Source: an uncultured Verrucomicrobiae bacterium (GTDB lineage Bacteria; Verrucomicrobiota; Verrucomicrobiia; Limisphaerales; Palsa-1400). From it: 64,000 nucleotides of DNA. A program made the position numbers and the translations under genes. Of this stretch, positions 25,140-58,279 are shown one piece after another (within the stretch, counting starts at the first letter, position 1; every line of letters starts with the position of its first letter). Below the pieces are notes generated by a model. It searched no databases. It saw only the letters and a program-made list of their open reading frames with translations, and was not told the origin of the DNA. The DNA lies in NCBI GenBank assembly GCA_963764165.1, contig CAVXRD010000004.1, forward strand, positions 352,001 to 416,000, written 5' to 3'.

Positions 25140-25247
25140 GCAGGACGACGGTGTTTGACCTAAAGATTTCGGCCAAATTGCCGATGACAGAGCGGGACGG
25201 TGTCGCTTTCCCGCCGTCCGCGCGTCGAACGGGAGAGCTTTGATCGA

Positions 25248-26930
25248 TTGAAAAAACAACTCTGCTTTATCGGATTTGCGGAAAGCGAACTGCTCCGCCT
25301 CCAGCCTTCGCTGGAGGCGACCGCGAATCGCTGGGAGTGCGTGCACTACCGCAGCACGGACGACGCGCTGAAAGCCATGCGCGAAACGCCGTATGATGTC
25401 ATGATCGCGAACCTCAGCCCGGACGGCCTGCACGACGCCGCTTTCCTCCAGAACGCAGCCATCGCCCATCCACGCATGATTCGCCTTGTCCTTGGTGATG
25501 TGGCGGATCGGGAAATGGTCGTGGGATGCATGGGCGCCGCCCATCAATTCATTTCCAAGCCATGGAAGCCGCCGGAATTAATTTCGATCATTGAGCGCAG
25601 CCTGGCGCTTGATTCGTGGCTTTCGAGCGACAGTTTGCGGCTATTCATTCCCCGCCTGGGGACGCTGCCAGGTTTGCCTTCCACTTACTTCGAGGTTCTG
25701 AAAAAGGCCGAATCGCCCAATTGCACCGTGGAGTCAATCGCCGACGTCATCGCGCGCGACCCGTCGTTGACAGCGCGATTGCTGCAAATGGTCAATTCGC
25801 CCGCCTCTGGCTTGAAAGAAAAAATCACAAGCCCGGCCGACGCGGTTTCGATGATGGGGATCGACGCTGTCAAATCATTGGTGCTGTGCTTGCAGCTTTT
25901 TTCGCAAACGTCCCCCGCGGATGCCGCCGGTCTGTCGCTGGATCGCCTGTGGCATCACAGTTTTATGGTCGCCAAGACGGCCGCGAAAGTGGTCTTGCGC
26001 TGCATCGCCAGCGAGCGCATGGCCAGCGAGGCTTACACGGCTGGGCTCTTGCACAACATCGGCCAGATTGTCATGGCCACGAATCTCTCGGGAGAATATT
26101 CGGCGGTCGTGCTGTACGCCCGCGAAAACAAATGCACGCTGCAGGACGCCGAAATCAAACTGCTGGGCGTCACCAGCAATCAGGTCGGCGCTTACCTGCT
26201 CGGCGTTTGGGGAATGCCGCTGGCCGTGCTGGAATCCACCGCGCTTCACTTGAATCCGTCCTCTGTGCAGCCGCCGGAGTTTTCATTGTTGACAGCCGTG
26301 CATGTCGCGAATGTTCTGGCCTGGGACGAGGATTCGGGCGACCTGAAGTTTCAGTTGCCAAAATTGGATTCCGACTACCTGCGAACCATGGAAATGCCGC
26401 GGAAACCAGACGCCTGGCGGAAATTCCTGGCGGAAGGCCCGTCGCAGGAGAAAATCCAGGCGCCCCGCCCTGCCCCGACGCTGGTCGAACCACCACCGCC
26501 GGTTCGCGCCAAACCAATCAAGGTCAAGGACGAAGCCGAAACCAGGCCCTCGAATAAGCCATCCTTTTTCTTTATTGGCCTGATCGTTCTGGCCGTGCTG
26601 GGCTTGGTGGCAAAAAACCGATATTTTCCCGGCCACGCCTCGGAAGCGGGTGACAACACAGAGCCAAAGCCCGCCGGTTCCAACTCCGCCAATCCCGCCC
26701 CAGACGCGCCGGCCGCCCAGCAGCGCAAGCCAGCCGAGCCGGACCCGGTGGACTTCGATATGATCAAGCTGCAAGGCATAATTTATATGCGCCGCAATCC
26801 TGTCGCTCTCGTGAATGGAAAAACGGTGGCGCCGGGCGATATGCTGGGAGCGGTGAAAATTGTTTCCATGACGACGAACAGCGTGGTGATGTCATGCAAG
26901 GGCGTTCAGAAGACCTTTTTTCTGAAATGA
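25248..26930 (+). CDS. Pseudo-receiver + HDOD + TM + GspB/PilP-like C-terminal domain
   Basis: REC fold (YDVMIAN...FISKPW); HDOD (DPSLTARLLQMVNS, LWHHS, AGLLHNIG); TM helix; KLQGIIY..NPVALVNGK. TTG start chosen. Confidence 0.8.
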   Translation: MKKQLCFIGFAESELLRLQPSLEATANRWECVHYRSTDDALKAMRETPYDVMIANLSPDGLHDAAFLQNAAIAHPRMIRLVLGDVADREMVVGCMGAAHQFISKPWKPPELISIIERSLALDSWLSSDSLRLFIPRLGTLPGLPSTYFEVLKKAESPNCTVESIADVIARDPSLTARLLQMVNSPASGLKEKITSPADAVSMMGIDAVKSLVLCLQLFSQTSPADAAGLSLDRLWHHSFMVAKTAAKVVLRCIASERMASEAYTAGLLHNIGQIVMATNLSGEYSAVVLYARENKCTLQDAEIKLLGVTSNQVGAYLLGVWGMPLAVLESTALHLNPSSVQPPEFSLLTAVHVANVLAWDEDSGDLKFQLPKLDSDYLRTMEMPRKPDAWRKFLAEGPSQEKIQAPRPAPTLVEPPPPVRAKPIKVKDEAETRPSNKPSFFFIGLIVLAVLGLVAKNRYFPGHASEAGDNTEPKPAGSNSANPAPDAPAAQQRKPAEPDPVDFDMIKLQGIIYMRRNPVALVNGKTVAPGDMLGAVKIVSMTTNSVVMSCKGVQKTFFLK

Positions 26931-30818: not shown

Positions 30819-32081
30819 ATGAACGTCGATTTGGCATACGGCCAGGGGCGCGTCGCGGTCGATTTGCCAGACGGCCGCACCACTGTCATCTCCCCTTCCC
30901 ACCGCCCCGGATTGCCGGACGAGCGCGCCGCCATTCGCGCCGCCCTCGAGCAGCCGATTTCCGCCCGGCCGCTCCGCGAGTGGATCAAGCCGGGTGACCG
31001 TGTTTGCGTTGCCTTTACCGACATCACGCGCGCCACGCCAAATCACAAATTGATTCCGTGGCTGCTCGAGTATTTGGCCGATGTGCCGCGCGAGCAAATT
31101 ACCCTGTTAAACCAGCTCGGCACACACCGTCCCAACACGCCGGCTGAACTCGACAAGTTGCTGACGCCCGCCGTGACCAGCCAGTACCGCGTGCTCAATC
31201 ACGAGCCGGAAAATCCAGATGCGCTGGCTCAGTTTGGAACGATGCGCGACGGCACGCCCGCACTCATCAATCGCCATCTCGCGGAAGCGGACGTTCGCAT
31301 TATCACTGGATTCATCGAGCCGCATTTTTTCGCGGGGTTCAGCGGCGGCATCAAAGGAATCATTCCCGGCTGCGGAGGCTTGCGCAGCGTGATGAGCAAT
31401 CACGGATTCAAGAATATTGGCGACGCCAAGTCGACTTTCGGCATCACGGTAGGCAATCCGCTATGGGAGGAATTGCGCGATGTCGCATTGCGCGTCGGCC
31501 CGAGTTTTCTGCTGAACGTCACACTCAACGAGCAGCGCGACATCACTGGCGTCTTTGCGGGGGATTTAATCGAGGCGCACCGGGTCGGCTGCGAATTTGT
31601 CCGGCAATCCGCGATGCAGAAAGTGAAAGCGCCCTTCGACATTGTCGTAACCACGAACAGCGGTTATCCGCTTGATTTGAATTTGTACCAGGGTGTGAAA
31701 GGCATGAGCGCGGGCGCCCGCATTTTGAACAAGGGCGGCCTGCTCATTCTCGCATGCGAGTGCAGCGAAGGCGTTCCGCCGGGCAGCCCGCTGGACAAGC
31801 TTTTGCTGAGCGCGCGGAGCCCGGAGGAAATACTCGTGATGCTGAGCACGCCGGGTTTCGTCCGCCCTGAGCAATGGCAGGCGCAAATCCAGGCGCTGAT
31901 TCAGAGGGATGTGGAAGTTCTGCTTTACAGCTCGCTGCCGGACGACATTGTGCGCAAGGCATTTTTGAACCCCTGCCGCGACATTGGGGCCACAGTGCGA
32001 CAACGGCTTGAATCTCTCGGGCCGAATGCCCGCGTGGCCGCGCTGCCGCAAGGGCCGCTGACCATTCCTTATCTCGCATGA
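30819..32081 (+). CDS. larA: LarA-family nickel-pincer-dependent 2-hydroxyacid racemase
   Basis: DITRATP, GTHRP, HFFAGFSGGIK, DLNLYQGVKGM. Confidence 0.88.
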   Translation: MNVDLAYGQGRVAVDLPDGRTTVISPSHRPGLPDERAAIRAALEQPISARPLREWIKPGDRVCVAFTDITRATPNHKLIPWLLEYLADVPREQITLLNQLGTHRPNTPAELDKLLTPAVTSQYRVLNHEPENPDALAQFGTMRDGTPALINRHLAEADVRIITGFIEPHFFAGFSGGIKGIIPGCGGLRSVMSNHGFKNIGDAKSTFGITVGNPLWEELRDVALRVGPSFLLNVTLNEQRDITGVFAGDLIEAHRVGCEFVRQSAMQKVKAPFDIVVTTNSGYPLDLNLYQGVKGMSAGARILNKGGLLILACECSEGVPPGSPLDKLLLSARSPEEILVMLSTPGFVRPEQWQAQIQALIQRDVEVLLYSSLPDDIVRKAFLNPCRDIGATVRQRLESLGPNARVAALPQGPLTIPYLA

Positions 32082-32971
32082 GATGGTGTGGTAATAATTC
32101 CGCGGCGCTCAGGATCGGGATTTGCGGGGTCGTAGTGCAGAGTGCAGATTTCATGGGGTTCCTTCAGGCCGGTATAACGAACATACCATGGATAGATCGT
32201 CGCTTTCCCTTGCACCACCACTCGGACAGAAAATTTTGTCATGTCGGCCTCGCACTGCTGCTTAAAGTAAACGACGGAAATTTTGTAGTCGCCAGCCGGC
32301 GCGCCGCCCGTAGGCCAGTATATATTTTCCACGGGTTTCTCTGTGCAGTTGCTCGAAAGGTAGTTTGCATCGACATCCAGTGTGCCGCCGCTGGCGGCTG
32401 AATGCTTGTTTTGGTAGTTAATTTCTGTCCCGAATGGATCAACGCAATGCAAATCAAGGTCATTTAGATTATTCCACATGAGCGAAATTTGAATGTCCCC
32501 TCCCTTCGCCCCCGCATCGCCAAGCCGGCGCGAAAATGCGGCGGCTTCCGGGAGATTCGGGCTGGCCGACACTGCCTGCGGAGTGTCGAAAAATTCGGGG
32601 TTCATTGAAATCGGGCCGTTTGTGTTATGCAAATTCGTCGAAATCGTCTCAGTCGCGGGCGCATTGTTGGTCGTGGGTGGCGCGTTGGCCGAGCGAGGAG
32701 CTTGGGATCCCGTCAAATTGGTTTCGACGGCGATTGCTTGCGTTGAAACGCCTGAGACCGGGGCAATCGGGCCGATTGGCTGCGCGTCGCCATTCCTTCC
32801 CGCCCCTTCAAACATCAGATTAAGGGTTGAGGCGCCGAACAAATTCGTTTCCGCCCATGAGCCCATGCCGCCGAAATACTGCGGGTGCGTGCGCAGTTTC
32901 CAAAGAGCCAGGATGACCACGAGTATGGCCATCACAATGACAGCGTCCTGCTTGAGCCTGGAACGGTTCAT
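32069..32971 (-). CDS. Membrane-anchored YfaP/DUF2135-like protein
   Basis: N-terminal TM; T/N-rich linker; GDIQISLMW..NDLDLHC.DP, GGTLDVDAN, PVENIYW. Confidence 0.75.
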   Translation of the reverse strand: MNRSRLKQDAVIVMAILVVILALWKLRTHPQYFGGMGSWAETNLFGASTLNLMFEGAGRNGDAQPIGPIAPVSGVSTQAIAVETNLTGSQAPRSANAPPTTNNAPATETISTNLHNTNGPISMNPEFFDTPQAVSASPNLPEAAAFSRRLGDAGAKGGDIQISLMWNNLNDLDLHCVDPFGTEINYQNKHSAASGGTLDVDANYLSSNCTEKPVENIYWPTGGAPAGDYKISVVYFKQQCEADMTKFSVRVVVQGKATIYPWYVRYTGLKEPHEICTLHYDPANPDPERRGIITTPSHAR

Positions 32972-34311
32972 GGCGTGTAAGGGGGCGGAACGTAGCGATA
33001 TTCGCCGCGGTTGTCATTCGCAATCCGGCTTAGCACTTTCTCGGCCTCATTGGAATAGAAGCCGATGGTGAAAACCCGCGCGAGGATCGAAGAGTTCGCA
33101 TTCTGGACGACGTCGATGCTGCTTTCCGGGACCGGGCCGCCCGCCAGAATCCAGATCACATCCGGCGCCGGCAGAAGTGAGAACGCGCGCTGTATGGCCT
33201 TTGAAGGATCAGGGGCGCCGCCGTTCCCCGCCGAAAAGAGCCAGTTGGTTGCGGTGTAAATATTCTCAGGCAAGGCGGTCATCGGGCCCAGGGACGGCAT
33301 TCCATCATAGCCACCGCCATGGGATAAAATGATGTAGAACGAGTGCGTTGGATCCATCGCATTAAGCGAGCGAACCAGTTGCTCGCGGGCGACCTGCGAT
33401 TTTCTGTTCGTTGCCATATCTAGAGAATTGTCCAAAATGAAGGCCACGTTCGTCCCGAGCTGGATGTCAAACAAAAGCGGCGGAGCGGTTGCGCCGAGGG
33501 GTTCAAACGGCAGCGGAACCTTGGGGTTTTCCTGATTCATGCCCGCCGCTTTCGACTGCGCGGCCGCTCCGCCGCCCGCCGCGGGTGAATGCGCCGAAGC
33601 CGGGGCGCCAGGCACCGCTCCCGATCCCGAAGCCCGGGCGCCAGGCACCGCTCCCGATCCCGAAGCCGGGGCCGCAGCGCCGGGCACCGATCGCGCCGCC
33701 GGGGTCGGGCTGGTCCGCGCCGAAGCCGGGGACCTTGCTTGGGGAGCGCTCGCGGCGGACGGCGGAACGGATTCAGGCGCTGGGCTTTCGTCCAGGGCCG
33801 CTCGCATGGCTGCATTCGCCGCCATTGTATTGGACAATTTGGATAATTGTGAAAGTGGCGCCGCCGGGCCCCCCGGCTTTGAATTCATTCCCGGGCCGCC
33901 GTTAAAGTTGCTGACGCCTACATACCTGCCAACCAGACCGTTGCTGGCATTTCGCGCAATCGCGCCGAAGATGGAATCCCGCTTTTCTTTAGTGTCAGCA
34001 ACTGCCTCATCGGTGGCCGGTCGGCCGGGCCCGGCATTGGCGGCGCCCGTCAATGCGTTCGCGGCGGGCGCGTTTGAAATTGCCGGCGCCGCGGCGGGTT
34101 CGGCATTTGTCAGCACGGGGGGCGGGGGTGGCGCGGATTCGGCAGGCGAAGGGATGCTCGAGGCTGTTCTCGCGCCGAGGTCGCCAAAAATGATCTGCCG
34201 CACCGGCCGTTGCGGCTGCAAGAATAGCCAGACTAGTACGCCGATCAACAACCCCAGCAAAAAACAAATCAGCGCTTCTTTCCAACCACTGCGGCGTCTA
34301 GGGCTGTTCAT
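32968..34311 (-). CDS. Membrane-anchored VWA-domain protein with Ala/Pro-rich linker
   Basis: N-terminal TM; VAFILDNSLDM; VFTIGF; L.RIA.DNRGEYRYV. Confidence 0.8.
   Translation of the reverse strand: MNSPRRRSGWKEALICFLLGLLIGVLVWLFLQPQRPVRQIIFGDLGARTASSIPSPAESAPPPPPVLTNAEPAAAPAISNAPAANALTGAANAGPGRPATDEAVADTKEKRDSIFGAIARNASNGLVGRYVGVSNFNGGPGMNSKPGGPAAPLSQLSKLSNTMAANAAMRAALDESPAPESVPPSAASAPQARSPASARTSPTPAARSVPGAAAPASGSGAVPGARASGSGAVPGAPASAHSPAAGGGAAAQSKAAGMNQENPKVPLPFEPLGATAPPLLFDIQLGTNVAFILDNSLDMATNRKSQVAREQLVRSLNAMDPTHSFYIILSHGGGYDGMPSLGPMTALPENIYTATNWLFSAGNGGAPDPSKAIQRAFSLLPAPDVIWILAGGPVPESSIDVVQNANSSILARVFTIGFYSNEAEKVLSRIANDNRGEYRYVPPPYTP
33595..33672. repeat. 33-bp coding tandem repeat (~2.4 copies; ASGSGAVPGA[R/P])
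   Basis: Units start at 33595, 33628 and 33661. Confidence 0.85.
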
Positions 34312-34320
34312 GCATGCTCC

Positions 34321-34992
34321 TTAATTCTGGGGCAGCGCCACGTCTCCGTTCGTGCCGACTCCCAATCGCTCGTCAATTAAGCGCGGCTGCCAGGCGCAAT
34401 GAAACCCCTGATTCGCGGCTGCGTCTCGCGCACGCCGGAATTCGGCGAAGGAGTCGGCCACCACCAGAAACAAAAAGTGATAATTGGTTCTGCCGCTGGA
34501 TCGAAAGGCGTTCAAGGTATTGGCCATATACTGCTCGGGATCTTCTCCCTTGCCCGGCTCGGGTTCTATGATCTTCCGGTCAGGCGAGAACGAGAACGCG
34601 CGGACATTCGGCGAAATACCCGTGCCGTCCGCGGAGATGGTTTTGTACGGATAAATCTTCCCGTACCGCATGACGACATTCCACGACGGATTGGTGTCCT
34701 GGACCGTCGTCAGCAGATGCATCACGTTGGTGACTGGATGCTGATGCGGGTTCTGGAGACGCTGTAATGTCTTTTGAAGATCAGCTTCCGCGACATCGTT
34801 GGAGGCAATGAGGGCCGCCAGGCTGGCCGCAGCCTTGGCCGGATCCGGCGGAGGCGCCGGGTGATGATCGAGCGCGTTGCGCCCAAGGAGCGCCACGACA
34901 AGGGCAATGAAAATGATCGCCCCCAGCAGGTTGCACATCGTGTCGAGCAGCATTTCCAAGCTGCTGGAGTAAAATCCTGATTTGTTTTTCAT
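34321..34992 (-). CDS. ExbD/TolR/MotB-like single-TM protein with membrane-proximal Asp
   Basis: SSLEMLLDTMCNLLGAIIFIALVV, then a coiled coil and a C-terminal alpha/beta domain. Confidence 0.6.
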   Translation of the reverse strand: MKNKSGFYSSSLEMLLDTMCNLLGAIIFIALVVALLGRNALDHHPAPPPDPAKAAASLAALIASNDVAEADLQKTLQRLQNPHQHPVTNVMHLLTTVQDTNPSWNVVMRYGKIYPYKTISADGTGISPNVRAFSFSPDRKIIEPEPGKGEDPEQYMANTLNAFRSSGRTNYHFLFLVVADSFAEFRRARDAAANQGFHCAWQPRLIDERLGVGTNGDVALPQN

Positions 34993-35549
34993 GGCGCCGC
35001 TAAAAGATACTCCAAATCCTCTTCCGCCGCGTCATAAGCGATGTTGAAATGACGGCTTTTTGCCAACTTATCGCAGATTCGAAAATTCGCGATCGCGGAT
35101 GGGCGAATGTAAAACACCAATCTGTCCCGGGTCGCATCCCAGCCGTCGAGCGCCAGTCTGAAATCCGCATTATCGGCCCGGACTGCAAACGGAACCGCGG
35201 TCGTCTGGCCGGGGCGGCTCCAAAGCCCGTTGGTGGCGGAGAGCACGATCAGCACCGGCTTAAGACCGCTTGGGTCGCGCTCCGGCACCACAAAAACGCG
35301 ATTCGTCAGCGCCGCCGACTGTTCGGTGCGGCGGCGCAATTCCGCCAGGGTTGCATCCAGCTTGGACTTTGCCTGCGCAATCTGCCGTTGCATATCACTG
35401 GCTTCATTTGCGGCCGCCGACGGTGGCTTATTCAAATAAAGCGTCATTAATAATGTGATCAGCACCAGCACCCCCGTCACGGCGGTGATCATGTCAAGGA
35501 AGGCAAAGAACGACACCCTGCCACTCGTGCTGCGCAGTTTGTTCGGCAT
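34989..35549 (-). CDS. ExbD/TolR/MotB-like single-TM protein with membrane-proximal Asp
   Basis: VSFFAFLDMITAVTGVLVLITLL; coiled coil; ..LVFYIRPS.. Confidence 0.6.
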   Translation of the reverse strand: MPNKLRSTSGRVSFFAFLDMITAVTGVLVLITLLMTLYLNKPPSAAANEASDMQRQIAQAKSKLDATLAELRRRTEQSAALTNRVFVVPERDPSGLKPVLIVLSATNGLWSRPGQTTAVPFAVRADNADFRLALDGWDATRDRLVFYIRPSAIANFRICDKLAKSRHFNIAYDAAEEDLEYLLAAP

Positions 35550-35552
35550 GGA

Positions 35553-36554
35553 TTATCCGCTGGTTCCTTCCTTGTCCCGCACCCTCAGTTTGGAGATCAC
35601 ATGCGCGTGGCAGTAATCATTGCATTCGTCGAGGAAGTCCGTTTCCTTCTGCTGCACAAAATCCGAGAACAAGTGCAGCACCAGCGCGAAACCGAGTCCC
35701 ACCAGTGTTGCTTCGAATGCGGTGGACAGGCCTGAGGTGACTTTCGAAAGATTGCTCTTTATCGCATCCATATCTGACGTGGAACCAAGCGTGTCGGTGA
35801 ATTGATGAATCGCCAGGCTCAAACCCAGCACTGTGCCAACGAATCCGAGCACGGGAATGGCCCAAATCATGGCGTGGATAATTGCGTAGCTGGATGCCAC
35901 CTGGTTCTCATCGTTTTCGCTTTGCGCCTTGAGAATCGTCGAGACATCGCTGACGCCGCCGATGTTGTGGAGATTTGACAGCGCACGGTCAATACGATTG
36001 AGAAGAATGAACTTCCGAGTGTCATCCACCAGGCTGCGAACGCGGTCAAGGACGGTCTTAGCCGTATCCTCGTTCAGGACAAATTCCCGGTGCTGCGGCA
36101 CGGCCGCCATGTCCAATGCGCGGCGCTGCAAGCGCAGTTTGGGAATCTTGATGAGGGCCACAACGACTCCCCAGAAGAAAAAAAGCGTCGCCGGCCCGGT
36201 GGCAAAAAGGTTTCCCTCGTGGACGAATAACTCGGCAAAGTCATGAGGCAGCGTGTGATTGGGCCGTTTGTAAAAGACAAACATCAGCGCGATGAAGCCG
36301 GCCGATAGGACGGATGCGATGATAAAGGTGAAAATCTTATTGACCGCAGTGAAGCGGCCTCCCCTGAACAACCCAAAACTAATCTGGTTCTCAATATCCT
36401 CTTCGCTCCAGTTCAGCGCCGCGGCGGACACCCGCGCCGGAGCCGCGGAGACGGGAACGGTTCCGGCGGGTGTTTGCGATGCGGCGGGCCGCTTGCTTAA
36501 GAAGCGCCCACCGGAAGGATTCGGCTGTGTTGGGTTGGTTGGTTCCATAAGCAA
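35553..36554 (-). CDS. MotA/TolQ/ExbB proton-channel family protein
   Basis: WAIPVLGFVGTVLGL and GLSTAFEATLVGL; two further N-terminal TMs. Confidence 0.9.
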   Translation of the reverse strand: MLMEPTNPTQPNPSGGRFLSKRPAASQTPAGTVPVSAAPARVSAAALNWSEEDIENQISFGLFRGGRFTAVNKIFTFIIASVLSAGFIALMFVFYKRPNHTLPHDFAELFVHEGNLFATGPATLFFFWGVVVALIKIPKLRLQRRALDMAAVPQHREFVLNEDTAKTVLDRVRSLVDDTRKFILLNRIDRALSNLHNIGGVSDVSTILKAQSENDENQVASSYAIIHAMIWAIPVLGFVGTVLGLSLAIHQFTDTLGSTSDMDAIKSNLSKVTSGLSTAFEATLVGLGFALVLHLFSDFVQQKETDFLDECNDYCHAHVISKLRVRDKEGTSG

Positions 36555-36560
36555 ATCACA

Positions 36561-37076
36561 TCAAGTCATTTCGTTTCCGAGGCCGTCTCTCCGGACAGCC
36601 AGCGCTTCGACCATGGCCCATATCCACGTGGCAATCACGCCGAAGCCCATCAGAAAAGTGGCGACGCTCAACAACAATTGGAGCGCCCCGGTCGTCCATT
36701 GGCGCGCGTAAAAGTTGTGGACGCCGGTGAACCCCAGCAGCACCGCCAGCAAGGCAAAGACCAACCGATGGCGCGGGTTGCCAATCGGAGCGCGCGATGC
36801 CGGCGCCGCCGCCATGGGCGGAGCCACCGGAACTTTCAGGCGAACCAGCGGCTTATCTTCAGGGGCAGGAGCGGCGGCGGCCACTGGACCGCGCGGGGCG
36901 GTGGTTTTTTCAGTTCGGGCGAAAAACTCCTCCAAGCTCACCCACCCGTTTTCAAATAGAATCTCATGCCCCATGCCGATGCGGTGGTCATCCAGCATTT
37001 GATTCAATTCCGCGAGCGAAAACGGGCCCGTTTGGCGGCCGCGCCAGCGAATCAAGTATCGCGCGTCTTCGCTCAA
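36561..37076 (-). CDS. GYF_2 (DUF4339) + TM2 domain protein
   Basis: YLIRWRGRQTGPFSLAEL...W; LLAVLLGFTGVHNFY. TTG start overlaps the upstream stop. Confidence 0.8.
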   Translation of the reverse strand: MSEDARYLIRWRGRQTGPFSLAELNQMLDDHRIGMGHEILFENGWVSLEEFFARTEKTTAPRGPVAAAAPAPEDKPLVRLKVPVAPPMAAAPASRAPIGNPRHRLVFALLAVLLGFTGVHNFYARQWTTGALQLLLSVATFLMGFGVIATWIWAMVEALAVRRDGLGNEMT

Positions 37077-39994
37077 GGTAATCCTCCGTAAAAGGGCGGC
37101 AAGTCATGCTCGGCAAGCGCGCGCTGGTAACCCGTTGCTTTGAGCGTCTGTTTGAGCAAGTCGCTCCGGTTGCCCGCGAAGATGAACAAGGGTGAATACG
37201 GCTGCGGGTCAGATGGTTGGGCAAAGGTTCCGCTGTCGCCATCCCGGCGGAACAGCACGGCCTCCCCCGCTCGATTCCAGCCGCAAAGCTCCACTGAACC
37301 CACCGGTGGCGAGCGAAAGACAGGTTTGCCGTCCGCATCGACATATCCTGCGTAGGAAAACCCCTTGACGCACGTGTCATGCACGAGCTGTTGCAAAAAG
37401 CGGGCTTGTTTCTCCATCGGTTTGGCTTTGGCTTTGTCGAAATAGTCCTGCAGCTTGGCTTCGATTTTTCTCTTCCGTTCCGCCACCAGCCAATCCCCGC
37501 TCTTGATATTCCCGGCCCCGAGGTCCGAAAGCGCCTGAATATGCGCGGCGGCAGCCGGACACCAGGGCAGGCCCCACTTTTCCGGACGCACTTGGGCGAT
37601 GGCCCACAGTCTGAATGTGGCATAGGCGCGAAACACGGCGCTGGCCTCGCTGTCACTGTTCAATTCATCGAGCAGTTGCAAAATGGGCTTTTGATAATTG
37701 TTCGAGTCGATCAAATTTCCGAAGCCCAGCCGCTCGTAGGTGTCGCTTTCCGCCGTGCGTTGCAGGGGGGACACATGGAAATCATAGGTAGAATAACTCC
37801 TGCTAACGAAGCGCAGGGCATGCGGATCCACCGCGGGGTCATAAACCGTCCCGGCAAAGTCGCCACCATTTTGCTGTTTGTCAATGGTGCCGCGCACATA
37901 AACATTGTGGGTCATATTGCGATTTCCAGGGTGTGGATCAGCCTCCAATTTGTACAAGTTGATATTGATGGCATTCGGGTCGTCGCGCAATTTGAAGTAG
38001 AAATCCTTTTCCGCATCGGTTGTGCCTTCCGGCATCAGGCTCATGTTCCAGTCGCTGGCATTGGTCAGGGTGCTCCAGTTTGTCGGATCATTTGGCAGAA
38101 GCAATTGGCCCAGGAGCGATTGCATCGAAATGTTAAACCCGCCGACCTTTGCGACTTCCGTCTTCACCGACTCACCAGCGAATGGGGAAAGCACGATCTG
38201 ATCGAGAGACTTCAAATAGTCTTCGAGCGTGGAAGCGCCCGGCAGGGCGGCTTTGGCCTCCTCCCATTTGGAGGCCGTGTTGGTCCATTTCTGGACTTCC
38301 GCCTTGATGCGCGACAGCCTTCCCGCCACCGCACCCGGAAGTTCCGGCGGCTGGGCCAGCAACGGGGCCGCCGCGGCCAGGGTGGTTTTTATTTCCTTGA
38401 ATGAGTCCAGCACGCGTTCAGGGCCGTCGGCTGGCTTCACACCCGCGACGATCTCCTCCCCGCGCGACAGCGACTCCTCCAGCTTATTGCTGCGGTATGT
38501 TTGCCATTGCGCATCGAACCCGCTCAATGCGCTGGCAGCTTGCGTTCGAAATTGCGGGGCCAATTGCGGCGCCTGCGATTCACATTCCGCCCGCACAGGA
38601 CCGACTTTCTCGACACCGCTGGCGAATCCTCCGCTGGCGATGCGCTGGAGCTCGGACATCCTGGCTTCGAATGCCTGCTTGATGCCCTCTTCCTTCGCAA
38701 TAAAATCGTGAGCTTTTGCAAACGTCTCCTCCATTCCTGGAGCGACACCGGCGCGAGTCACCTCATTCGTCAATGCCACCACGCTGGAAACATCCCGGGC
38801 GGATTGGAGCTTCGAAAATTGGCTGGCAAACGCCATCTGCCGGACTTTATTCGAAACGTGAGGCGCGGCCGCGGCAATGCAAGCGAGGACGACAACCGCA
38901 GCCGCCGCCCAAGCCACCCGCTTTCGGCGGATGGAGAGTCGAATTTGCAACTGGAGCCACGCGCGTGAATTGTCGCACGCCGACACCAACTCATCCGGCA
39001 GGGGTTTCTTGAATCGCTCCGCTGCCGACTGCTTTTCGGCGAGCGATTGCAAGGCGGCGCCAGCCTCGATCTCAGGCATGGACCCGCGCTTGGAACGGCG
39101 GGTGGCCAGGATGGAAACTTCGTGCTCAAGCGCGCCGACGGCCCGGTTGAAATCTTGCTGGGCGACATAGGCCGCCCGCTGTTGGGCTGACCAATCCTCC
39201 ATGGCCGACCAGCTATCCGCATCGGCTTCCGGCAATCGAAGATTGTAGCGGGTGGCCACCGCATGGACGTCCTCCACGGCAGTTTCCGTTTCGATCCACA
39301 ATTCCTGCCGGCGCAATTCCTCGGCCCGGCGGATCATTTGTTGACAGCGCGCGATCTGCGCCTGCTGCCAGGCGGGATGTGAAACCGGCACCGGCAGGCC
39401 GGACGCTTCCAACTGGTCGAGGGCGGCCTGTGTCCCGGCGGCATCGCCGGAGGCCGCCACAGCGCGCAAACTTTCCAGTTTTGAGCGCAATAATTTATCC
39501 TCCAGGCGCTTCAATTCCTCCTTCGTGTTCGTATCCGAGGGATTCAGCTTGGCGATGACGCGCAAAATGGAAAACGCGCGCGTGTCATTGTTCTCCATGA
39601 TCGCGCGGCGGTAATCCTTGTAGAACTGATGGTCGCTGTTGATGCCTTTGGCATAGGTTTCGTTGAGAAGGCGGATGTATTTGTCGTAAAACGGCTCGCT
39701 CGATGGCAGGTGATGCTGCTGGCAGAACGCCCGCCATTCAGCGGACTGGCGAAAGCTCAGCAGGGTGATGATCTCGAGGAGCGGCGGCGCAGTTTCAGCC
39801 AGTTGAAGCGCCTGGAGAAACTGGCCCGCCTCGATCATCAGCGCGCATTGCTCAAGCCGCCGGCCCGCCGCGCGGCAGAGTTCGGCGTAATCCTGGGCGA
39901 GCTTCGCGGTGTGGGCGTCCGAGGCCGGATGACTGACGGCATCGGTGATCCGCCGCACCAATCTTTCGGTTTGAGTCAATGTCATCATTGTCAA
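37073..39994 (-). CDS. Large bitopic protein: helical cytoplasmic N-terminus, TM, ~600-aa C-terminus
   Basis: 973-aa ORF within the operon; TM VAWAAAAVVVLACIAAAA. No family recognised. Confidence 0.8.
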   Translation of the reverse strand: MTMMTLTQTERLVRRITDAVSHPASDAHTAKLAQDYAELCRAAGRRLEQCALMIEAGQFLQALQLAETAPPLLEIITLLSFRQSAEWRAFCQQHHLPSSEPFYDKYIRLLNETYAKGINSDHQFYKDYRRAIMENNDTRAFSILRVIAKLNPSDTNTKEELKRLEDKLLRSKLESLRAVAASGDAAGTQAALDQLEASGLPVPVSHPAWQQAQIARCQQMIRRAEELRRQELWIETETAVEDVHAVATRYNLRLPEADADSWSAMEDWSAQQRAAYVAQQDFNRAVGALEHEVSILATRRSKRGSMPEIEAGAALQSLAEKQSAAERFKKPLPDELVSACDNSRAWLQLQIRLSIRRKRVAWAAAAVVVLACIAAAAPHVSNKVRQMAFASQFSKLQSARDVSSVVALTNEVTRAGVAPGMEETFAKAHDFIAKEEGIKQAFEARMSELQRIASGGFASGVEKVGPVRAECESQAPQLAPQFRTQAASALSGFDAQWQTYRSNKLEESLSRGEEIVAGVKPADGPERVLDSFKEIKTTLAAAAPLLAQPPELPGAVAGRLSRIKAEVQKWTNTASKWEEAKAALPGASTLEDYLKSLDQIVLSPFAGESVKTEVAKVGGFNISMQSLLGQLLLPNDPTNWSTLTNASDWNMSLMPEGTTDAEKDFYFKLRDDPNAININLYKLEADPHPGNRNMTHNVYVRGTIDKQQNGGDFAGTVYDPAVDPHALRFVSRSYSTYDFHVSPLQRTAESDTYERLGFGNLIDSNNYQKPILQLLDELNSDSEASAVFRAYATFRLWAIAQVRPEKWGLPWCPAAAAHIQALSDLGAGNIKSGDWLVAERKRKIEAKLQDYFDKAKAKPMEKQARFLQQLVHDTCVKGFSYAGYVDADGKPVFRSPPVGSVELCGWNRAGEAVLFRRDGDSGTFAQPSDPQPYSPLFIFAGNRSDLLKQTLKATGYQRALAEHDLPPFYGGLP

Positions 39995-40003
39995 CTATGG
40001 CCG

Positions 40004-42319
40004 CTAAGGCCCTTCGAATCGAATCATTTCCAGTCCAGGTTTCGGCTGGCGCGGGTCCACGATTCCGAGCGCGATGTACGAGACTTTGTCCAACTGAGCC
40101 AGCCGTCTTTTCACATCGTCCATTCGCGCCCGCAACCCACCCGCGTCGGCCACGATTTGCCAGGCCGCCTCAAGATAATTCGTCGCGGCTAAGCTTTGCG
40201 AGCGGCGCTCGCTCCAGGCGCCATAAATTTTCTGAAGGTTGGACACAACCTCGTCCGGCTGGCTGGCATCAAAATCGGCGCGCATTTTTTTGAGCCACGC
40301 CCTGTCCGGGGGAGCGGCGGCTTTGATGGCGCTTAGGTAATTCGAGTAGAGGGCAACCGTGACCTCGTTTGAGGCATACGCAAAATAACTCGCCAGATTT
40401 CCGTTCGTCTCGTTCAAAAGCTTGCCCAGCGGCATGCCAAGCGGCTGGCACTGCTGATCAAACCGCCCCTGCAAACTGTCCACTTGTCTGCGAAGGTTTT
40501 CGCGCACACTGGCGTAATCGAGTTCGTGGCCGAAGGCCGGGACGTCATCCGGAGGCCAGTCTTTGTAAAGATATTGCGAATTCGTCCCTGCCGCCGGCAC
40601 ATAGGGATGCAATTGCCATTGGCGTCCGCCCATGAGATGGAAGTTCCTCTCCACGCTGGCGCGGACAGAATCCTGCAACCCGGCATTGTGATTGTCCTTG
40701 TCGATTCGGATGTAGCGGGCGGGAAGACGAACCGGCATGGGTGGATTATTTTCGCTGATGATGACAAGCCGGAACGGGTCGCAATTTGTTTCCGCCGGCT
40801 TAAATTGGAAATGAAGGAAATAAGAGCCCACGATCCCCGCTGCCTCAATCTTCAAGGGACCCGGTGGCGATGCAATGTAAGCATCAAACCCCAAAGTGCA
40901 TGAGAAACCCGAGCCGGCCGCTCTAAAGCTATCGGCCTTGTAGCCCTGAACTGTCATCGGCTCGCCCTGAACGTTGATCCATTGATCGCTCGCCGCTTCA
41001 AGCATGATGTTTCCCGGGGATGTGTCCAAGTACTTGTAACGATTGAGCAAGCGCAACAAAGGCTTAATCGAGTTGGTCACCGAAACGTTGGAGGCATCCT
41101 TCGCCACAATGATGAATGTTGGACCGCCAGCAACAAACTGATCCAACGCGCTGTCATCCTGAACAACGGGTTCCGGCGGCGTGGGATTCTCGGTCTTAAT
41201 ATGAGGCTGATCGGGCGCGGCTGCGACGGGTTCGGCAACCGGTGGTTCGACAGTCGCGTGAGATGAGCGGCGTTTCACCCAGAACAAAACAGCCAGGACA
41301 ATGATCACTATTCCCACCGATAAAATAGTCGCCCGGCTGATGCTCACCTGCAAACCTTCGCGCTTCGGAGGCGGCGGGCCGGGGCGGGGCAGCGTCAATT
41401 GCGGCGCATAATTGCCGGTGCTTTCTTGCTTGGGCAGCAAGCTGAGCGGTTTGCCTGCATCCGCCGCTTTCACTTCGGCTGCCGCCGCCTTTGGCGGAGC
41501 GGAAGGCAACGCCTGCGCTTTCGCGTCTTCGCGGGCCAATTTCACCAGGGAATTAGGCGGCACGCGAATCGATCTTAACGCGATGAGCTGGGCGGATTTC
41601 GCCATCGCCTGTTTGTGGGCCGGTGCATTCTCCTGGCAGGCGCGCCATTCAAAATCGTTCGGATTGTCCTCCGCCTGGAGGAAATTGGTGAACGTATGCC
41701 GCCACGGCCGCAACGGGGTCTGCCCATTGGAGTTGAGCAGTTGGAGCGTCTCACAATACATCGCCAGCACAAGCTCCTGGCTGTCGGGCGGGCAGCTCAA
41801 GTACGTCCCATGCAGCTCCAGCAATCCAGCCGCCCGGCCGCCGTCGCCAGTGACTTGCGTCCAGGTGCGCGCGGGCAGGCAATTCTTCGCGGCGGCGGCA
41901 AAACCCGAGGTGTCAATGCTGTCAAGCAATCGAGGCTCTCCCTGCCACGATGAAAGCCAGCCCGGCCAAAACCGCAAAATGGCGGCGGGCGAAGGCAGCC
42001 CGGATACTTCGTCGGGCTGGAAAATCAGATGGTGCGCAAGATGGTTTGTGCGGGCCGTGAAATCGAGTCCGCACGGCTGGATGCGCGTCAACACATAATA
42101 TTTGGCCCCGCGAAAATCGAGCAGCCGAAACGCGGAGACGGTCGGATTCCGATTCGCCGTCGCCGCCTCGGCCACCCGGATATAGTGGTAGGAACTCATC
42201 TGCTCCAGCCGCTGGGCGACAGCTTCGCGCAGGTCAGCGCTCCGGGCGACGGTGCAGAATCCTGTATGCCCGGAAAGCAGGCCGCGCGGCGCACTGGTAT
42301 AGATCAGTTGCCAGGGCAT
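40004..42319 (-). CDS. GAP1-N2-like (GTPase-associated protein) domain + TM + large C-terminal domain
   Basis: N-terminus QLIYTSAPRGL..G..GFCTVARS and DFTARTNHLAHHLI resemble GAP1-N2; TM ILSVGIVIIVLAVLFWV. Confidence 0.72.
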   Translation of the reverse strand: MPWQLIYTSAPRGLLSGHTGFCTVARSADLREAVAQRLEQMSSYHYIRVAEAATANRNPTVSAFRLLDFRGAKYYVLTRIQPCGLDFTARTNHLAHHLIFQPDEVSGLPSPAAILRFWPGWLSSWQGEPRLLDSIDTSGFAAAAKNCLPARTWTQVTGDGGRAAGLLELHGTYLSCPPDSQELVLAMYCETLQLLNSNGQTPLRPWRHTFTNFLQAEDNPNDFEWRACQENAPAHKQAMAKSAQLIALRSIRVPPNSLVKLAREDAKAQALPSAPPKAAAAEVKAADAGKPLSLLPKQESTGNYAPQLTLPRPGPPPPKREGLQVSISRATILSVGIVIIVLAVLFWVKRRSSHATVEPPVAEPVAAAPDQPHIKTENPTPPEPVVQDDSALDQFVAGGPTFIIVAKDASNVSVTNSIKPLLRLLNRYKYLDTSPGNIMLEAASDQWINVQGEPMTVQGYKADSFRAAGSGFSCTLGFDAYIASPPGPLKIEAAGIVGSYFLHFQFKPAETNCDPFRLVIISENNPPMPVRLPARYIRIDKDNHNAGLQDSVRASVERNFHLMGGRQWQLHPYVPAAGTNSQYLYKDWPPDDVPAFGHELDYASVRENLRRQVDSLQGRFDQQCQPLGMPLGKLLNETNGNLASYFAYASNEVTVALYSNYLSAIKAAAPPDRAWLKKMRADFDASQPDEVVSNLQKIYGAWSERRSQSLAATNYLEAAWQIVADAGGLRARMDDVKRRLAQLDKVSYIALGIVDPRQPKPGLEMIRFEGP

Positions 42320-42326
42320 GGTTTGT

Positions 42327-44081
42327 CTACTGGCTGGGCACCAGGCCCGGTTCGATGCACGAAAGCAGCCACAAAATCGGCGTCTCGACCTGGAACGGCT
42401 TCAATTGCTTCGGGTCGGGAACAAAATCACCCGGACCCAATCTCACCGGCGAATGCCCAAACGAACTCGCCGGGAAAAACATCACCCGCGAACTGATCGA
42501 TTCCGCGTTAGCCACGATTTGCGGCGCGATGCGTTTCATCAGGCCGCGCACGTGGTCGGAATTGGATTTGACCGCGCTCAAATCCAAGGCACCGCCCGCG
42601 ATGGGCTCGTGCAACGGAGTGCCCTCAAGCAAATGTATCCACGAATCGCATTTCCCAATGACGACAGCCAGGGGAGTATGGATTTGATCCAGCAACTCAA
42701 GCTTCAACAGTTTGGAAATGCGCACTTTCATCTCCGAGAGAATCACTCCCTGCAAATCGAGGGCGGGTTTTTCCAGTTGCGGATCGTCGCGGTCAGAAAT
42801 CATGTGCCGGAAATCCGGGTTGTTGAACGGGTCGAATAGAAACAAAATCCCCGCCGAACTCGCGACATGCTGGGCGCCGGGGGACTCCACGGAATCGCGC
42901 CCCGGTTGAAAATGCTCGCCGGCGTTGTCGTAAAAAATAACCGAGCAGCGGGCTGACGGCTGGCTCGGCGAGGCGGCGGAGTAAACAAACGGTTTCGGCA
43001 GCTTGACCATTCGTCCGTAACGGGGCAGGCTCACATACATGCCGCCTTCCAGTTGTGTCTTGGCCAATCGCGCCTTCTCGGGGCTTTCGGCGCCGAAAAG
43101 CGTTTGCTTCATTTCCGTCAGCAGGGCATTGCCCGCTGGATCGGCGTCTTGAAAAACGATGTTGAAATTCTCGTACAGCTTGGTGGGCAGCATCTTCATC
43201 AGCACGCTCAAATAATAGGATTTCCCCGCGCTCTGATCACCCACGATGGAAATAATATGATGCGGCATCTCGGTGAAGCCCGGGGGCAGCACGCGGCGGC
43301 AGTGCGGACACGCTATCTCTGTGCAAGGCAGCCCAAAGGCGTCCAGCGCCTGGCCGAGATCGTTGAAACGGGTGGCCAGAAAACGCTGCGGCGCATCCTC
43401 TCCCAAAACGGGGTCGCCGCGCAGAGAATCGTGGGCGGCCAGATGCATAAGGTCGCCAAGGTCAAATTTCAACCAGCACACCGGACACGTCAGCACCCGC
43501 GGTTCGGCTTCGGTGAGGTCGGAAAGCGCTTCCATGGCCGGCTCGGCCCGTGCGAGAGCTGCCAGCGATGCCTCGACATCAAGCGCATCCTCCAACAAAA
43601 ATCCCTGGGTAACTCCGGCTGGCTGCACAAGAGATTGAGGATGGCGTCCGTTTTCGCGGGCAGCCTTTATCAACTCGCCAAAGCTAGCCGGGCCGTCGAC
43701 TTGATTGGTAAGGCCGTCGCGCAATGTCCATTGCGCGCAATCGATTCCCTGAATCCAGTCCTCGGGATTCCGTCCGCCTCGAAGCAGGACAAAATGAGCG
43801 CCGATTTTTACCGCCAGTTCGCCCTCCGAACCGAGTGGTTGGATATCCACCGGGCTGCCATTGACGGTCAGGACTCCATTGGGATCGTGCTTGATGAGGC
43901 AAAGTCCCTGCCCTTTGATTTGATTGATGGCGCAGTGGCGCTCGGCGACTCCCTGGGAAGCAAGCCGAAGATCCGCTCCATGGCCGGAGCCAATTTCAAA
44001 AGGAAGATGTTCTACAATAAACGATTCGCCCGTCAGGCAATCCACCGCGGCCCATTGACTCTTGCGCAACAGATCAAACAA
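42327..44081 (-). CDS. FHA-like + GYF-like + Zn-ribbon + TRAFAC (double-GTPase-like) GTPase
   Basis: G1 GDQSAGKS (43218-43241); G3 DNAGE; G4 GKCD; G5-like SSFG; CPVC..CPHC; FEIGSG..DLRL..QGVAERHCAI. Confidence 0.8.
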   Translation of the reverse strand: MFDLLRKSQWAAVDCLTGESFIVEHLPFEIGSGHGADLRLASQGVAERHCAINQIKGQGLCLIKHDPNGVLTVNGSPVDIQPLGSEGELAVKIGAHFVLLRGGRNPEDWIQGIDCAQWTLRDGLTNQVDGPASFGELIKAARENGRHPQSLVQPAGVTQGFLLEDALDVEASLAALARAEPAMEALSDLTEAEPRVLTCPVCWLKFDLGDLMHLAAHDSLRGDPVLGEDAPQRFLATRFNDLGQALDAFGLPCTEIACPHCRRVLPPGFTEMPHHIISIVGDQSAGKSYYLSVLMKMLPTKLYENFNIVFQDADPAGNALLTEMKQTLFGAESPEKARLAKTQLEGGMYVSLPRYGRMVKLPKPFVYSAASPSQPSARCSVIFYDNAGEHFQPGRDSVESPGAQHVASSAGILFLFDPFNNPDFRHMISDRDDPQLEKPALDLQGVILSEMKVRISKLLKLELLDQIHTPLAVVIGKCDSWIHLLEGTPLHEPIAGGALDLSAVKSNSDHVRGLMKRIAPQIVANAESISSRVMFFPASSFGHSPVRLGPGDFVPDPKQLKPFQVETPILWLLSCIEPGLVPSQ

Positions 44082-53111: not shown

Positions 53112-54362
53112 TCAACCAAATTTCCTGGCAAGGCGCTCCTTGTGGTAGGCGAGCCGCTGTTCGTTTGTCATCTTGTCAAAATCGGGCGCGCCAAATCGGG
53201 AGACGGGCCTGGCGGATTTTGCGGAGGAGGCGTTTGAAGCGGGTTTTGATCCTGCCATTGATATGGTCGCGCGCGAAGCCGCAACGCTGTCGTAACTCAT
53301 CGCGAGATCGGTCAGCTCCAAATCTTTTTCCAGCGGCAGCTTGGGCTGGATTCTTTTCCCCTGCAAAACGCCGTGATAGGCGCGCACCGCTTCCTCGGGA
53401 GAAATTTTTCCATCCGTGATCAAGCGAAGCATTTCAATGAACGCCAATTGATGCTCCGCGTTGTTGATCTTGCGGCCGTACAACGCCACGCGCGCCCCGT
53501 ACTTTTGCGCGTCGTGGATGAGTTTGAACGCGTCGTAAGTCGTCCCCGCGCTTCCGCCCAGGACGCCGACGACGAGATTCGGATCGTACTGCGCCAATTC
53601 TTCCATCGCCCGCGGCCCGTGGTAAACGATCTTTAGAAACACCGGGCGGCCCGCCTCGGTGACTCCCGCCAGATTCCGCAAAATCTGGTCGTTGATGAAC
53701 TCGCCCATTTTCTCGGGGGCAATGCCGCTGGCGGTGTTGGGATCGAACACTTCGAGGAAATAGCGGAATTTTTTCCGCTCGGCTTCTTCGCGAAATTCCT
53801 TGAAAGCCAGCAGCGTGGCGCGATCCTGCTCCAAATTATTGACAAACGTGACCGAGTATAAGCCAAGATTTGCGCCGGGAATTTCCGCGCTCCGGTCGCA
53901 CTCAACTTTCCCGCATTGGATGTGGTCGATGCTCGCGCTGCGGAATGTCTCCGCCGGCTCCTTGGTGTAACAGCCGTGACGCACTACCCAAACGTCCGTT
54001 GTATCATTGGCGCGCGCGGCGGGCGTCACGTGCGAATCGCGGAACATGCCCTCCTTGATCGTCAACAATTCGTTGACATAGGCAGACATCAGCATGATGT
54101 CGACCAGCCCCTGCTGGGTGACTTCGCGGATGATGTCGAGAAATTCGGGAAGATTGCGATATCCGAATTCTTCGCGATTCCAAATCTCCGGGGAAAATTT
54201 TGCGGGATGCGCGCCTTTGCCGGCCAGATAGCCGCGCGGGCCGGGCGCGCGCACGCCGAATGCCATGTCGGCGTCCTTGGCATCGGCGATGATGAAATCT
54301 CGCGAACCCGGCTGCGCCTTGATTTTGGCGAGTTTTGTGTCAAGTGATTTGATGGCGCTCAT
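53112..54362 (-). CDS. TIM-barrel class I aldolase-like protein, BMC-associated
   Basis: FLEVF, FLKIVY (candidate Schiff-base Lys), VLGG, YGRKI; downstream of the BMC operon in the same orientation. Confidence 0.6.
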   Translation of the reverse strand: MSAIKSLDTKLAKIKAQPGSRDFIIADAKDADMAFGVRAPGPRGYLAGKGAHPAKFSPEIWNREEFGYRNLPEFLDIIREVTQQGLVDIMLMSAYVNELLTIKEGMFRDSHVTPAARANDTTDVWVVRHGCYTKEPAETFRSASIDHIQCGKVECDRSAEIPGANLGLYSVTFVNNLEQDRATLLAFKEFREEAERKKFRYFLEVFDPNTASGIAPEKMGEFINDQILRNLAGVTEAGRPVFLKIVYHGPRAMEELAQYDPNLVVGVLGGSAGTTYDAFKLIHDAQKYGARVALYGRKINNAEHQLAFIEMLRLITDGKISPEEAVRAYHGVLQGKRIQPKLPLEKDLELTDLAMSYDSVAASRATISMAGSKPASNASSAKSARPVSRFGAPDFDKMTNEQRLAYHKERLARKFG

Positions 54363-54392
54363 CTTAAAAACGGGTGACGCCCGGGCGCAACT

Positions 54393-54503
54393 TGCCGGAG
54401 CGCGGCTGTGTCGAAGACCAGCCGCAGCAATGCTCTAATACTCTGACGCGCCTTTCGATTCCGCCTTGCTGCGGCTGGTCTTCGACACAGCCGCGCTCCG
54501 GCA
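54393..54503. repeat. Perfect 38-bp inverted repeat (family B)
   Basis: 54393-54430 is the exact reverse complement of 54466-54503. Confidence 0.95.
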
Positions 54504-54533
54504 CAGGCATGGCGCCACTCGCCGAAATCGCGT

Positions 54534-55580: not shown

Positions 55581-55876
55581 TTGAAAGGTGAATAAAAAAT
55601 TTCGTCGATCAATGCCGCGTTTATGGCGTCAATGGGAGTTGGTTTGTCAAAAGGCATGGCGGCCTCCCGGCCTTCGATGAAGCCGATAGTCTGTCCCACC
55701 CCGCCGCCGAGATTGTCATAAACAACAACGCTCGGTTCCTTTGTGACAGCCGCCGCGCCGGATTCGGGTTTGAAATGTTCGCGCGAACATGGGCTGACGA
55801 CCAACCATCGAGCGCCGGCGAAACCTTCCGCCGTTTTCCCCAAGGTTACCCTGCCAATGACCGTGCCCAATCTCAT
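55577..55876 (-). CDS. BMC pentamer (EutN/CcmL)
   Basis: MRLGTVIGRV...YDNLGGG.G...EGREA..PF...PIDA. Confidence 0.88.
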   Translation of the reverse strand: MRLGTVIGRVTLGKTAEGFAGARWLVVSPCSREHFKPESGAAAVTKEPSVVVYDNLGGGVGQTIGFIEGREAAMPFDKPTPIDAINAALIDEIFYSPFK

Positions 55877-56151: not shown

Positions 56152-56158
56152 GGTTGTT

Positions 56159-57637: not shown

Positions 57638-57660
57638 AGGCGGTTAAATCGGTTTGGCGG

Positions 57661-57972: not shown

Positions 57973-57974
57973 AA

Positions 57975-58268: not shown

Positions 58269-58279
58269 AATTTTCTTTC

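Follow-up and report, generated by a model that had tools for sequence, protein, structure and literature searches.

A conserved verrucomicrobial operon that encodes a DO-GTPase and a GAP1-N2 protein beside an ExbB/TolQ-like motor

What does a row of nine tightly packed genes do when it places a GTPase beside an ion-driven motor, and is it a single system at all? The question is raised by a stretch of 64,000 nucleotides from an uncultured Verrucomicrobiae bacterium (GenBank assembly GCA_963764165.1, contig CAVXRD010000004.1, positions 352,001 to 416,000), hereafter called the window. On its minus strand, nine co-oriented open reading frames (ORFs), g1 to g9, span 32069-44081. An initial annotation of the window, made from its letters, had taken them as one operon in which a GTPase is wired to a proton-driven motor, matching no known system.

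We find that this operon is real, widely conserved in Verrucomicrobiota and uncharacterised, and that it joins two halves described computationally. The conserved unit runs from a DO-GTPase through a GAP1-N2 protein, the 973-residue helical membrane protein, a variable GYF-membrane protein and an ExbB/TolQ-like subunit to two ExbD/TolR-like subunits and a variable tip. Because the g4 slot and the terminal slots vary in relatives, the nine-gene form is a clade-specific version of a six-gene unit. The nine-gene system proposed at first keeps its conserved order, but its fixed part comprises six genes with two variable slots.

Searching with a profile of the GTPase, we found matches in 35 of 301 genomes of the phylum and 21 of 201 genomes of the order, with the host genome counted in both. 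All 61 other GTPase places from these searches form an unbiased genome set, and the best 80 of 582 loci form a metagenome set. Among the loci whose flank was long enough to show each gene, we see GAP1 behind the GTPase in 48 of 56 (1.5 kb or more), g3 in 43 of 53 (4.5 kb or more) and g5 in 29 of 46 (9 kb or more). Of these last 46 unbiased loci, 28 repeat the order GTPase, (GAP1), g3, g5, g6, g7 exactly, which is far beyond chance and confirms the conservation in other Verrucomicrobiota for which a check had been proposed. Under the same flank limit, g5-g7 are found in 22 of 30 metagenome loci. Of the 21 other genomes in which g5 has a close relative (E<1e-45), 20 also encode the GTPase; in the exception, the contig starts inside g3.

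The named close relatives are Verrucomicrobiota and one record labelled Saccharimonadales, and the distant ones include Lentisphaeria and Victivallales. An ESM Atlas cluster of g6 (score 0.88) hints at Planctomycetota, as a lead only. In the GTPase tree (85 rows, excluding short-flank loci and one partial GTPase), loci with the motor occur in each of the two deep branches, and parsimony counts 12 changes, by which the motor would have been gained or lost about 12 times. The component trees of 56 loci correlate with a rho of 0.83-0.95, which is shared descent only, not co-evolution.

Within the window, the junctions from g1 to g9 measure 7, 9, -4, 6, 3, -4, 9 and -4 bp in order, so the tight same-strand packing claimed earlier, with gaps of 3-9 bp and overlaps of 4 bp, agrees with the ORF coordinates. 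Each gene is present in one copy in the host genome. An aldo-keto reductase gene lies 99 bases upstream of the block and a convergent lactate-racemase-family gene at its other end, neither of which is kept in relatives. A promoter and terminator scan gave counts at the level of shuffled sequence (6 versus 4.5 and 20 versus 17.8), with none directly upstream of g1. We rejected a recent horizontal island, because the GC content of g1-g9 (0.55-0.63) and that at third codon positions (0.62-0.72) resemble those of neighbouring housekeeping genes.

Table 1. The nine genes of the operon, in order of transcription (TM, transmembrane helix).
Gene	Coordinates	Strand	Length (aa)	Assignment
g1	42327..44081	-	584	FHA, probable GYF-like domain, zinc-ribbon CxxC pairs, TRAFAC-type DO-GTPase
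g2	40004..42319	-	771	GAP1-N2 (2-131), probable GAP1-M, Pro-rich linker, one TM at ~330, variable C-terminal region
g3	37073..39994	-	973	~350 aa of helical repeats, one TM at ~360, ~590 aa of helical bundles with two alpha/beta domains; core gene
g4	36561..37076	-	171	GYF domain and TM2; variable slot
g5	35553..36554	-	333 (331 from next ATG)	ExbB/TolQ/MotA-family channel subunit, channel threonines T241 and T283
g6	34989..35549	-	186	ExbD/TolR-like partner 1; TM with Asp19, coiled-coil stalk, TolR-like alpha/beta domain
g7	34321..34992	-	223	ExbD/TolR-like partner 2, paralogue of g6; TM with Asp17
g8	32968..34311	-	447	N-terminal TM without His, long Pro/Ala/Gly linker, C-terminal VWA-like domain; TonB/TolA-like layout
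g9	32069..32971	-	300	N-terminal TM, linker, DUF2135-related (YfaP-like) domain; end overlaps the convergent lactate-racemase-family gene

The GTPase g1 starts at a TTG codon with GGAGG upstream. Its Pfam match to FHA reaches 21.3 bits against a cut-off of 20.7, and that to DO-GTPase2 reaches 25.5 bits, under the cut-off of 27 which relatives pass. The GYF-like segment at about residues 125-156 has moderate support, aligning to the GYF profile with a probability of 66% in hhalign. The zinc-ribbon cysteines are C199/C202 and C258/C261, and the nucleotide-binding motifs are intact: GDQSAGKS (G1), T342 at the G2 position, DNAGE (G3) and KCD (G4). In an alignment of 21 sequences, the four zinc cysteines, T342 and DNAGE do not vary, and G1 and KxD vary little or not at all. 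Among the GTPase ORFs of the collected loci, some of which are clipped by contig ends, G1 is found in 146 of 146, DxxGE in 138 and KxD in 132. With the Glu at Walker B and the N-terminal zinc ribbons, g1 carries the marks of the DO-GTPases of GAP1-N2 systems, and a GAP1-N2 gene, g2, lies directly downstream of it.

In g2, GAP1-N2 (PF20013) is matched with E=3e-23. GAP1-M is above cut-off in three g2 relatives, not in g2 itself, and GAP1-C was matched in none of the proteins scanned. Pfam gave no fn3 match at E<=0.1 in the nine window proteins, and the predicted model of g3 is helical; on the other hand, the GAP1 proteins of two relatives contain Ig-like domains. From hydropathy and domain type, the N-termini of the membrane proteins are predicted to lie inside, and the C-terminal region of g2 would be periplasmic. 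For g3, neither a family match nor, with the whole-protein model, a specific fold match was obtained. This model, built from 25 sequences (predicted local distance difference test, pLDDT, 84.5; predicted template modelling score 0.47), retrieved generic helical repeats, with a Foldseek TM-score of about 0.1 and a best Z of 9.6 at a root-mean-square deviation (rmsd) of 23.7, and its profile gave coiled-coil noise in a PDB sequence search. At one locus (L196:8773-16051), the GTPase and GAP1 genes are followed by three tandem g3 paralogues.

In the ExbB/TolQ/MotA family, five channel and two plug subunits build a rotary ion channel (5:2). Ion-driven motors of this kind work in flagella, in the import of nutrients, in the upkeep of the outer membrane, in gliding and in Zorya defence; to our knowledge, only that of Myxococcus is GTPase-gated. 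A heterologous plug pair is also described for AglQ/AglS. The product of g5 matches MotA_ExbB (PF01618; E=4e-13), and T241 and T283 align with the invariant threonines of four canonical ExbB-type proteins in the same genome. Both threonine motifs are found in 66 of 66 g5 relatives, and PF01618 together with the two channel threonines marks g5 as an A subunit. A PDB sequence search with g5 returned none at E<=0.01. The adjacent B subunits g6 and g7, paralogous by hhalign (99.5%), carry the nearly invariant TM aspartates D19 and D17. The aspartate is matched in 63 of 77 g6-like and 63 of 75 g7-like ORFs, counts that take in GTPase-less distant loci where g6 carries Ser, Cys or Asn.

The predicted model of g6 (pLDDT 85.6) displays a TM helix, a coiled coil and a beta-beta-beta-alpha-beta-alpha-beta domain. 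Compared with 48,161 chains, it finds E. coli TolR in second place (Z 7.8, rmsd 3.2, 84 residues aligned). The coiled-coil stalk between plug and domain has a median of about 130-140 residues in relatives and is short in the window. PDB sequence searches with the g6 and g7 profiles returned coiled-coil noise. We rejected a flagellar stator, because FliG and the other MotA-family genes sit elsewhere in the genome.

Meanwhile, we notice two further kinds of motor locus. A second group (L060-L072) has longer g5 relatives (450-520 aa) and two plug genes without a GTPase; in its first plug the Asp is replaced by Ser, Cys or Asn, an NHL-repeat gene is present at several of the loci, and type II secretion genes are close to some of them. 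At L075:10671-13777, L073 and L074, a MotA-like gene precedes TM-VWA genes with a helix Asp, resembling the TPH-vWA family described in PMC12204202.

The remaining genes occupy the variable slots. In g4, TM2 is matched with E=5e-10, and GYF_2 stays below cut-off (E=0.002). Among loci with the motor, a separate GYF gene is found in 28 of 34 from genomes and 21 of 22 from metagenomes. The GYF domain in this slot is fused in relatives to TM2, RDD, trypsin or multi-TM regions, one locus has a PrsW-family protein, and the gene is sometimes absent. The VWA call of g8 leans on relatives, which match VWA_3 with E=0.0068 (L002) and E=0.00055 (L100); distant proteins in the same slot are above cut-off. 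The call of g9 is drawn from a protein above cut-off for DUF2135, which we take to be the YfaP domain; g9 shares 45% identity with this protein across 121 aa (E=4e-32). A PDB sequence search with g9 found none. In the 25 genome loci whose sequence runs on for 2.5 kb or more past g7, VWA follows in six, a DUF2135-like domain in five and an unnamed domain in five, with VWA and DUF2135-like together in one. The slot keeps its TM and low-complexity linker while the tip swaps between these three domains and ankyrin repeats (two loci). The VWA and YfaP-like genes, both present here and both part of the operon as first listed, are interchangeable terminal modules.

Pfam gave no above-cut-off match for g3, g6, g7, g8 and g9. 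Within the domain order of the initial annotation, GAP1-N2, TM2 and MotA_ExbB are above cut-off and FHA barely so, but GYF_2 and DO-GTPase2 fall below it, and VWA and YfaP are reached through relatives. The same annotation had noted the lack of TonB, receptor, flagellar, nuclease and toxin genes; the family scans of the nine genes matched none of these.

Other arrangements were also observed. In one genome (G262) the operon is split, with the motor and the terminal gene on one contig and GTPase-GAP1-g3-GYF on another (L041, L099), both intact. Four loci of one family (L040, L045, L047, L050) have an unnamed gene of 350-380 aa directly upstream of the GTPase. Eight of the 17 loci that lack the motor belong to one genus and have a shortened, weakly g3-like third gene; this divergent form (L078-L086) is found in 8 of 22 genomes of a small-genome genus, often beside a metallophosphoesterase gene. 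In three genomes of one family (L095:9568-13007, L096:9858-13278, L097:6976-10375), the genes downstream of GTPase-GAP1-g3, on the same strand, are a PilM-TM fusion and a pair with one TM each; they replace the motor and resemble a pilus-alignment module, and the GAP1 of these loci is short and without a TM. Since it is confined to one lineage, this adjacency may be due to chance.

Which published systems does the operon resemble? The GAP1-N2 systems were defined computationally by Kaur, Burroughs, Iyer and Aravind in 2020 (PMC7159879), and their anti-invader activity is a prediction only there. They share with the operon a zinc-ribbon GTPase with Glu after G3, followed by a TM-bearing GAP1-N2 protein, and GYF-TM or GYF-trypsin partners; they occur in verrucomicrobia and planctomycetes, and other subtypes have vWA partners. 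In contrast, the operon has no detected FNIII-repeat gene, no GAP1-C match and a single GTPase, and it adds the 973-aa helical TM core gene and the ExbB/ExbD-like motor. We class it as a variant, not a canonical member. The main text of PMC7159879 does not contain 'MotA' and deals with tubulin, HSP70 and kinase themes only, although its Figure 6B and Figure 1-source data 1 may show motor neighbourhoods.

The motor half has its own counterpart. Williams-Jones et al. (2025; PMC12204202) describe, computationally, TPR-tolQ-tolR-tolR-vWA loci in bacteria of the Planctomycetota-Verrucomicrobiota-Chlamydiota (PVC) group, with a function given as unknown there, and propose that TM-linker-vWA proteins beside tolQ and two tolR-like genes are force transducers. 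A helical-repeat gene, a tolQ-like gene, a heterologous tolR-like pair and a TM-linker-vWA gene form the same layout as in our operon, where g5-g8 follow it. By description, the two differ in that the PVC transducers often have an SHLS motif with a motor-binding His, whereas g8 and the 20 VWA hits have no TM His; the tip of the operon is swappable and often absent; and the accessible text of PMC12204202 does not contain 'GTPase'. The statement that the locus matches no known system thus holds for characterised systems, but not for the motor half, which resembles PVC loci in print. Our literature search, which left subscription papers mostly outside, found no paper that joins a DO-GTPase or GAP1 with a MotA/ExbB motor; PMC11237479 and bioRxiv 10.64898/2026.10.19.760177, in their accessible text, mention the DO-GTPase with no motor coupling.

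Our leading interpretation, held at somewhat below an even chance, is a GTP-gated, ion-driven 5:2 motor of the inner membrane, which would pull on periplasmic or cell-wall targets and remodel the envelope under stress or contact. In this mechanism, g1, g2 and g3 would form the core switch; g2 and g3 would each span the membrane a single time and bind the GTPase through their N-terminal domains. Five g5 subunits and one g6/g7 heterodimer would form the motor, a stoichiometry taken from family knowledge. The GYF and FHA domains may recruit partners to the switch, as the GltJ and GltG domains are described or predicted to do in Agl-Glt. The physical wiring of switch to motor is something we infer. 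Because there is no TonB, the candidates for carrying the force are g8/g9, with their TonB-like shape, or g3 through its long periplasmic part, and swappable tips would set the target. The operon may work like the regulatory layer of Agl-Glt without being a member of it, because there, according to PMC11761067, a TolQ/TolR/TolR motor is controlled by a GTPase via zinc-ribbon-GYF and FHA parts.

Several results weigh against this interpretation. Envelope remodelling as the output is conjectural, and the operon encodes no outer-membrane partner. At 17 of 46 GTPase loci there is no adjacent motor, and the g5 profile found no match anywhere in ten of ten tested motor-less genomes (92-99% complete; positive control 5/5). 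The motor, first taken as integral to the GTPase system, is therefore a frequent output module, not an obligatory part, and the switch can work without it. What stands of the proposed link between GTPase switch and ExbB-like motor is a conserved operon with two Asp-helix partners, in which the motor is frequent, not constant. GAP1 is missing in six loci, where g3 comes directly after the GTPase. Between the g5 and GTPase trees, 8 of 27 supported splits conflict, and between those of the g3 periplasmic part and the GTPase, 2 of 27. At the terminal slot, 11 of the 25 genome loci have none of the three tip domains, and the TM His of TonB-type anchors is absent from g8 and found in 0 of 20 VWA hits. 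As for g6, its TolR match is level with unrelated RNase H-like folds (top Z 8.2), and neither TolR nor ExbD is among the Foldseek matches listed. Against the six ExbD proteins of the genome, the g6 and g7 profiles are not significant (hhalign 1.4% and 0.6%), so the likely ExbD/TolR assignment combines position, aspartate and predicted model.

A broader version of the GTP-gated motor appears less probable still, and we consider it on the unlikely side. The operon would then represent a distinct class of 5:2 rotary motor under direct DO-GTPase control, in which a portable switch of GTPase, GAP1 and helical scaffold plugs into varied envelope force machines and drives swappable periplasmic arms. 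With similar doubt, its partners would be the ExbB/ExbD-like motor in most loci and a PilM-containing pilus-alignment module in one family. If true, this would recast the PVC GAP1-N2 systems as regulated envelope mechanics and make the operon a convergent counterpart of MglA-Agl-Glt logic in non-gliding bacteria. 

Whichever version applies, the operon offers a second, unrelated candidate coupling of GTPase and motor, in about a tenth of the sampled Verrucomicrobiota genomes. It also opens the prediction of a DO-GTPase conflict system to testing, since there is a link between one complete operon and a cultured species, and the point mutations are obvious (Walker A lysine, plug aspartates).

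Among the competing explanations, an anti-invader conflict system survives best, though we regard it as improbable. Envelope sensors would detect a phage or predatory cell, the GTPase would set a threshold, and the motor or channel would be the effector arm, by Zorya-like signalling, depolarisation or containment. PMC7159879 predicts such a role for GAP1-N2 systems, and the planctomycete GYF-trypsin and TM-rich fusions there match the g4 slot. The patchy presence (35 of 301 genomes in the phylum, 21 of 201 in the order, 8 of 22 in one genus), the variable slots and the roughly 12 motor gains or losses point in the same direction. Like Zorya (ZorAB), the operon has a MotA-family channel in an accessory setting, and the best NCBIfam and PADLOC matches of g5 are ZorA (E=3e-5 and 1e-6). 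However, these cover the shared TM region alone and lie far under the cut-off (23 versus 100 bits). The PADLOC check, proposed in the initial annotation, matched no other Zorya model, and the operon has no peptidoglycan-binding OmpA-type ZorB domain, long ZorA tail, ZorC/D/E, nuclease or toxin.

The flanks bear on the same explanation. We scanned 100 of 105 flanking ORFs, the other five being g9 itself or its opposite strand. NCBIfam named 43 of the 100, one as an IS256 transposase and the others as metabolic, regulatory or housekeeping genes, with no anti-phage family among them. PADLOC, run on 39 of the 57 unnamed ORFs, gave one match, a WYL regulator. None of 18 viral candidates was a relative, and the one plasmid match was weak (23% to Rhodococcus). 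The flank test argues against a defence island but is suggestive only, because it has no control set of known defence loci. With housekeeping flanks and no effector gene, the defence-island explanation, and with it the invader sensing first proposed as a function, is weakened.

A Ton-like energiser is a still weaker candidate. Under GTPase switching, it would import or export polymers or proteins via outer-membrane partners encoded elsewhere. The channel threonines, plug aspartate and putative TolR-like periplasmic domain resemble ExbBD-TonB and TolQRA, the plug pair is heterologous, g8/g9 are TonB-shaped, and the carriers include sugar-fermenting gut and soil lineages. In contrast to those systems, the operon has a coiled-coil stalk and a GTPase linkage, and it has no TonB, TonB_C, TolA, TolB, Pal or receptor. 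Canonical TonB loci lie elsewhere in the genome, where separate loci have seven ExbD and three TonB_C matches, and no conserved transporter or glycoside hydrolase neighbour was found at the loci of relatives.

We rate a surface-motility machine working like Agl-Glt as very unlikely. Descriptions of Myxococcus Agl-Glt (PMC11761067, PMC11135422, PMC3169522) include a TolQ/TolR/TolR motor, GTPase control via zinc-ribbon-GYF and FHA parts, and a helical-repeat scaffold. The operon shares these domain kinds, namely a TolQ-like and two TolR-like subunits, a small-GTPase switch, zinc ribbon, GYF, FHA, helical-repeat scaffold (PMC11761067) and VWA. The GYF domain of the GTPase family also weakly matches the solved GltJ (AgmX) domain 7z3c (E=0.018). 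Its GTPase family is different, however, and no TonB_C or Glt family is above cut-off in the nine genes; outer-membrane barrels or an outer-membrane complex and Glt orthologues are likewise missing, and the single GltJ match is a low-complexity stretch (17 of 450 bits). The accessible text of PMC3169522 has no PVC terms. The low rating follows from L040, a full operon whose GTPase is 100% identical to P0241, named from Victivallis vadensis, a species listed as non-motile in Table 1 of PMC5148204.

Least probable, by a little, are two independent modules that are merely co-transcribed: the halves do occur alone (17 motor-less GTPase loci; the GTPase-less motor triplets L058 and L068 and the longer-MotA loci L060-L072), but their adjacency, with overlaps of a few bases, holds in both deep branches of the GTPase tree at 30-40% protein identity, and the GTPase is encoded in the same genome as 20 of 21 close relatives of g5.

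Outside the operon, the window contains other loci. Positions 53112-61645 carry aldolase II, aldehyde dehydrogenase, acetate kinase, PTAC and DeoR genes, presumably a known PVC bacterial-microcompartment locus. The 1079-aa protein encoded at 9888-13127 carries a pro-kumamolisin activation domain and is a probable S53 protease of the secreted kind. Two HDOD-domain signalling proteins are located at 25200-26930 and 61867-62799, and the first has a C-terminal TM and an extra domain.

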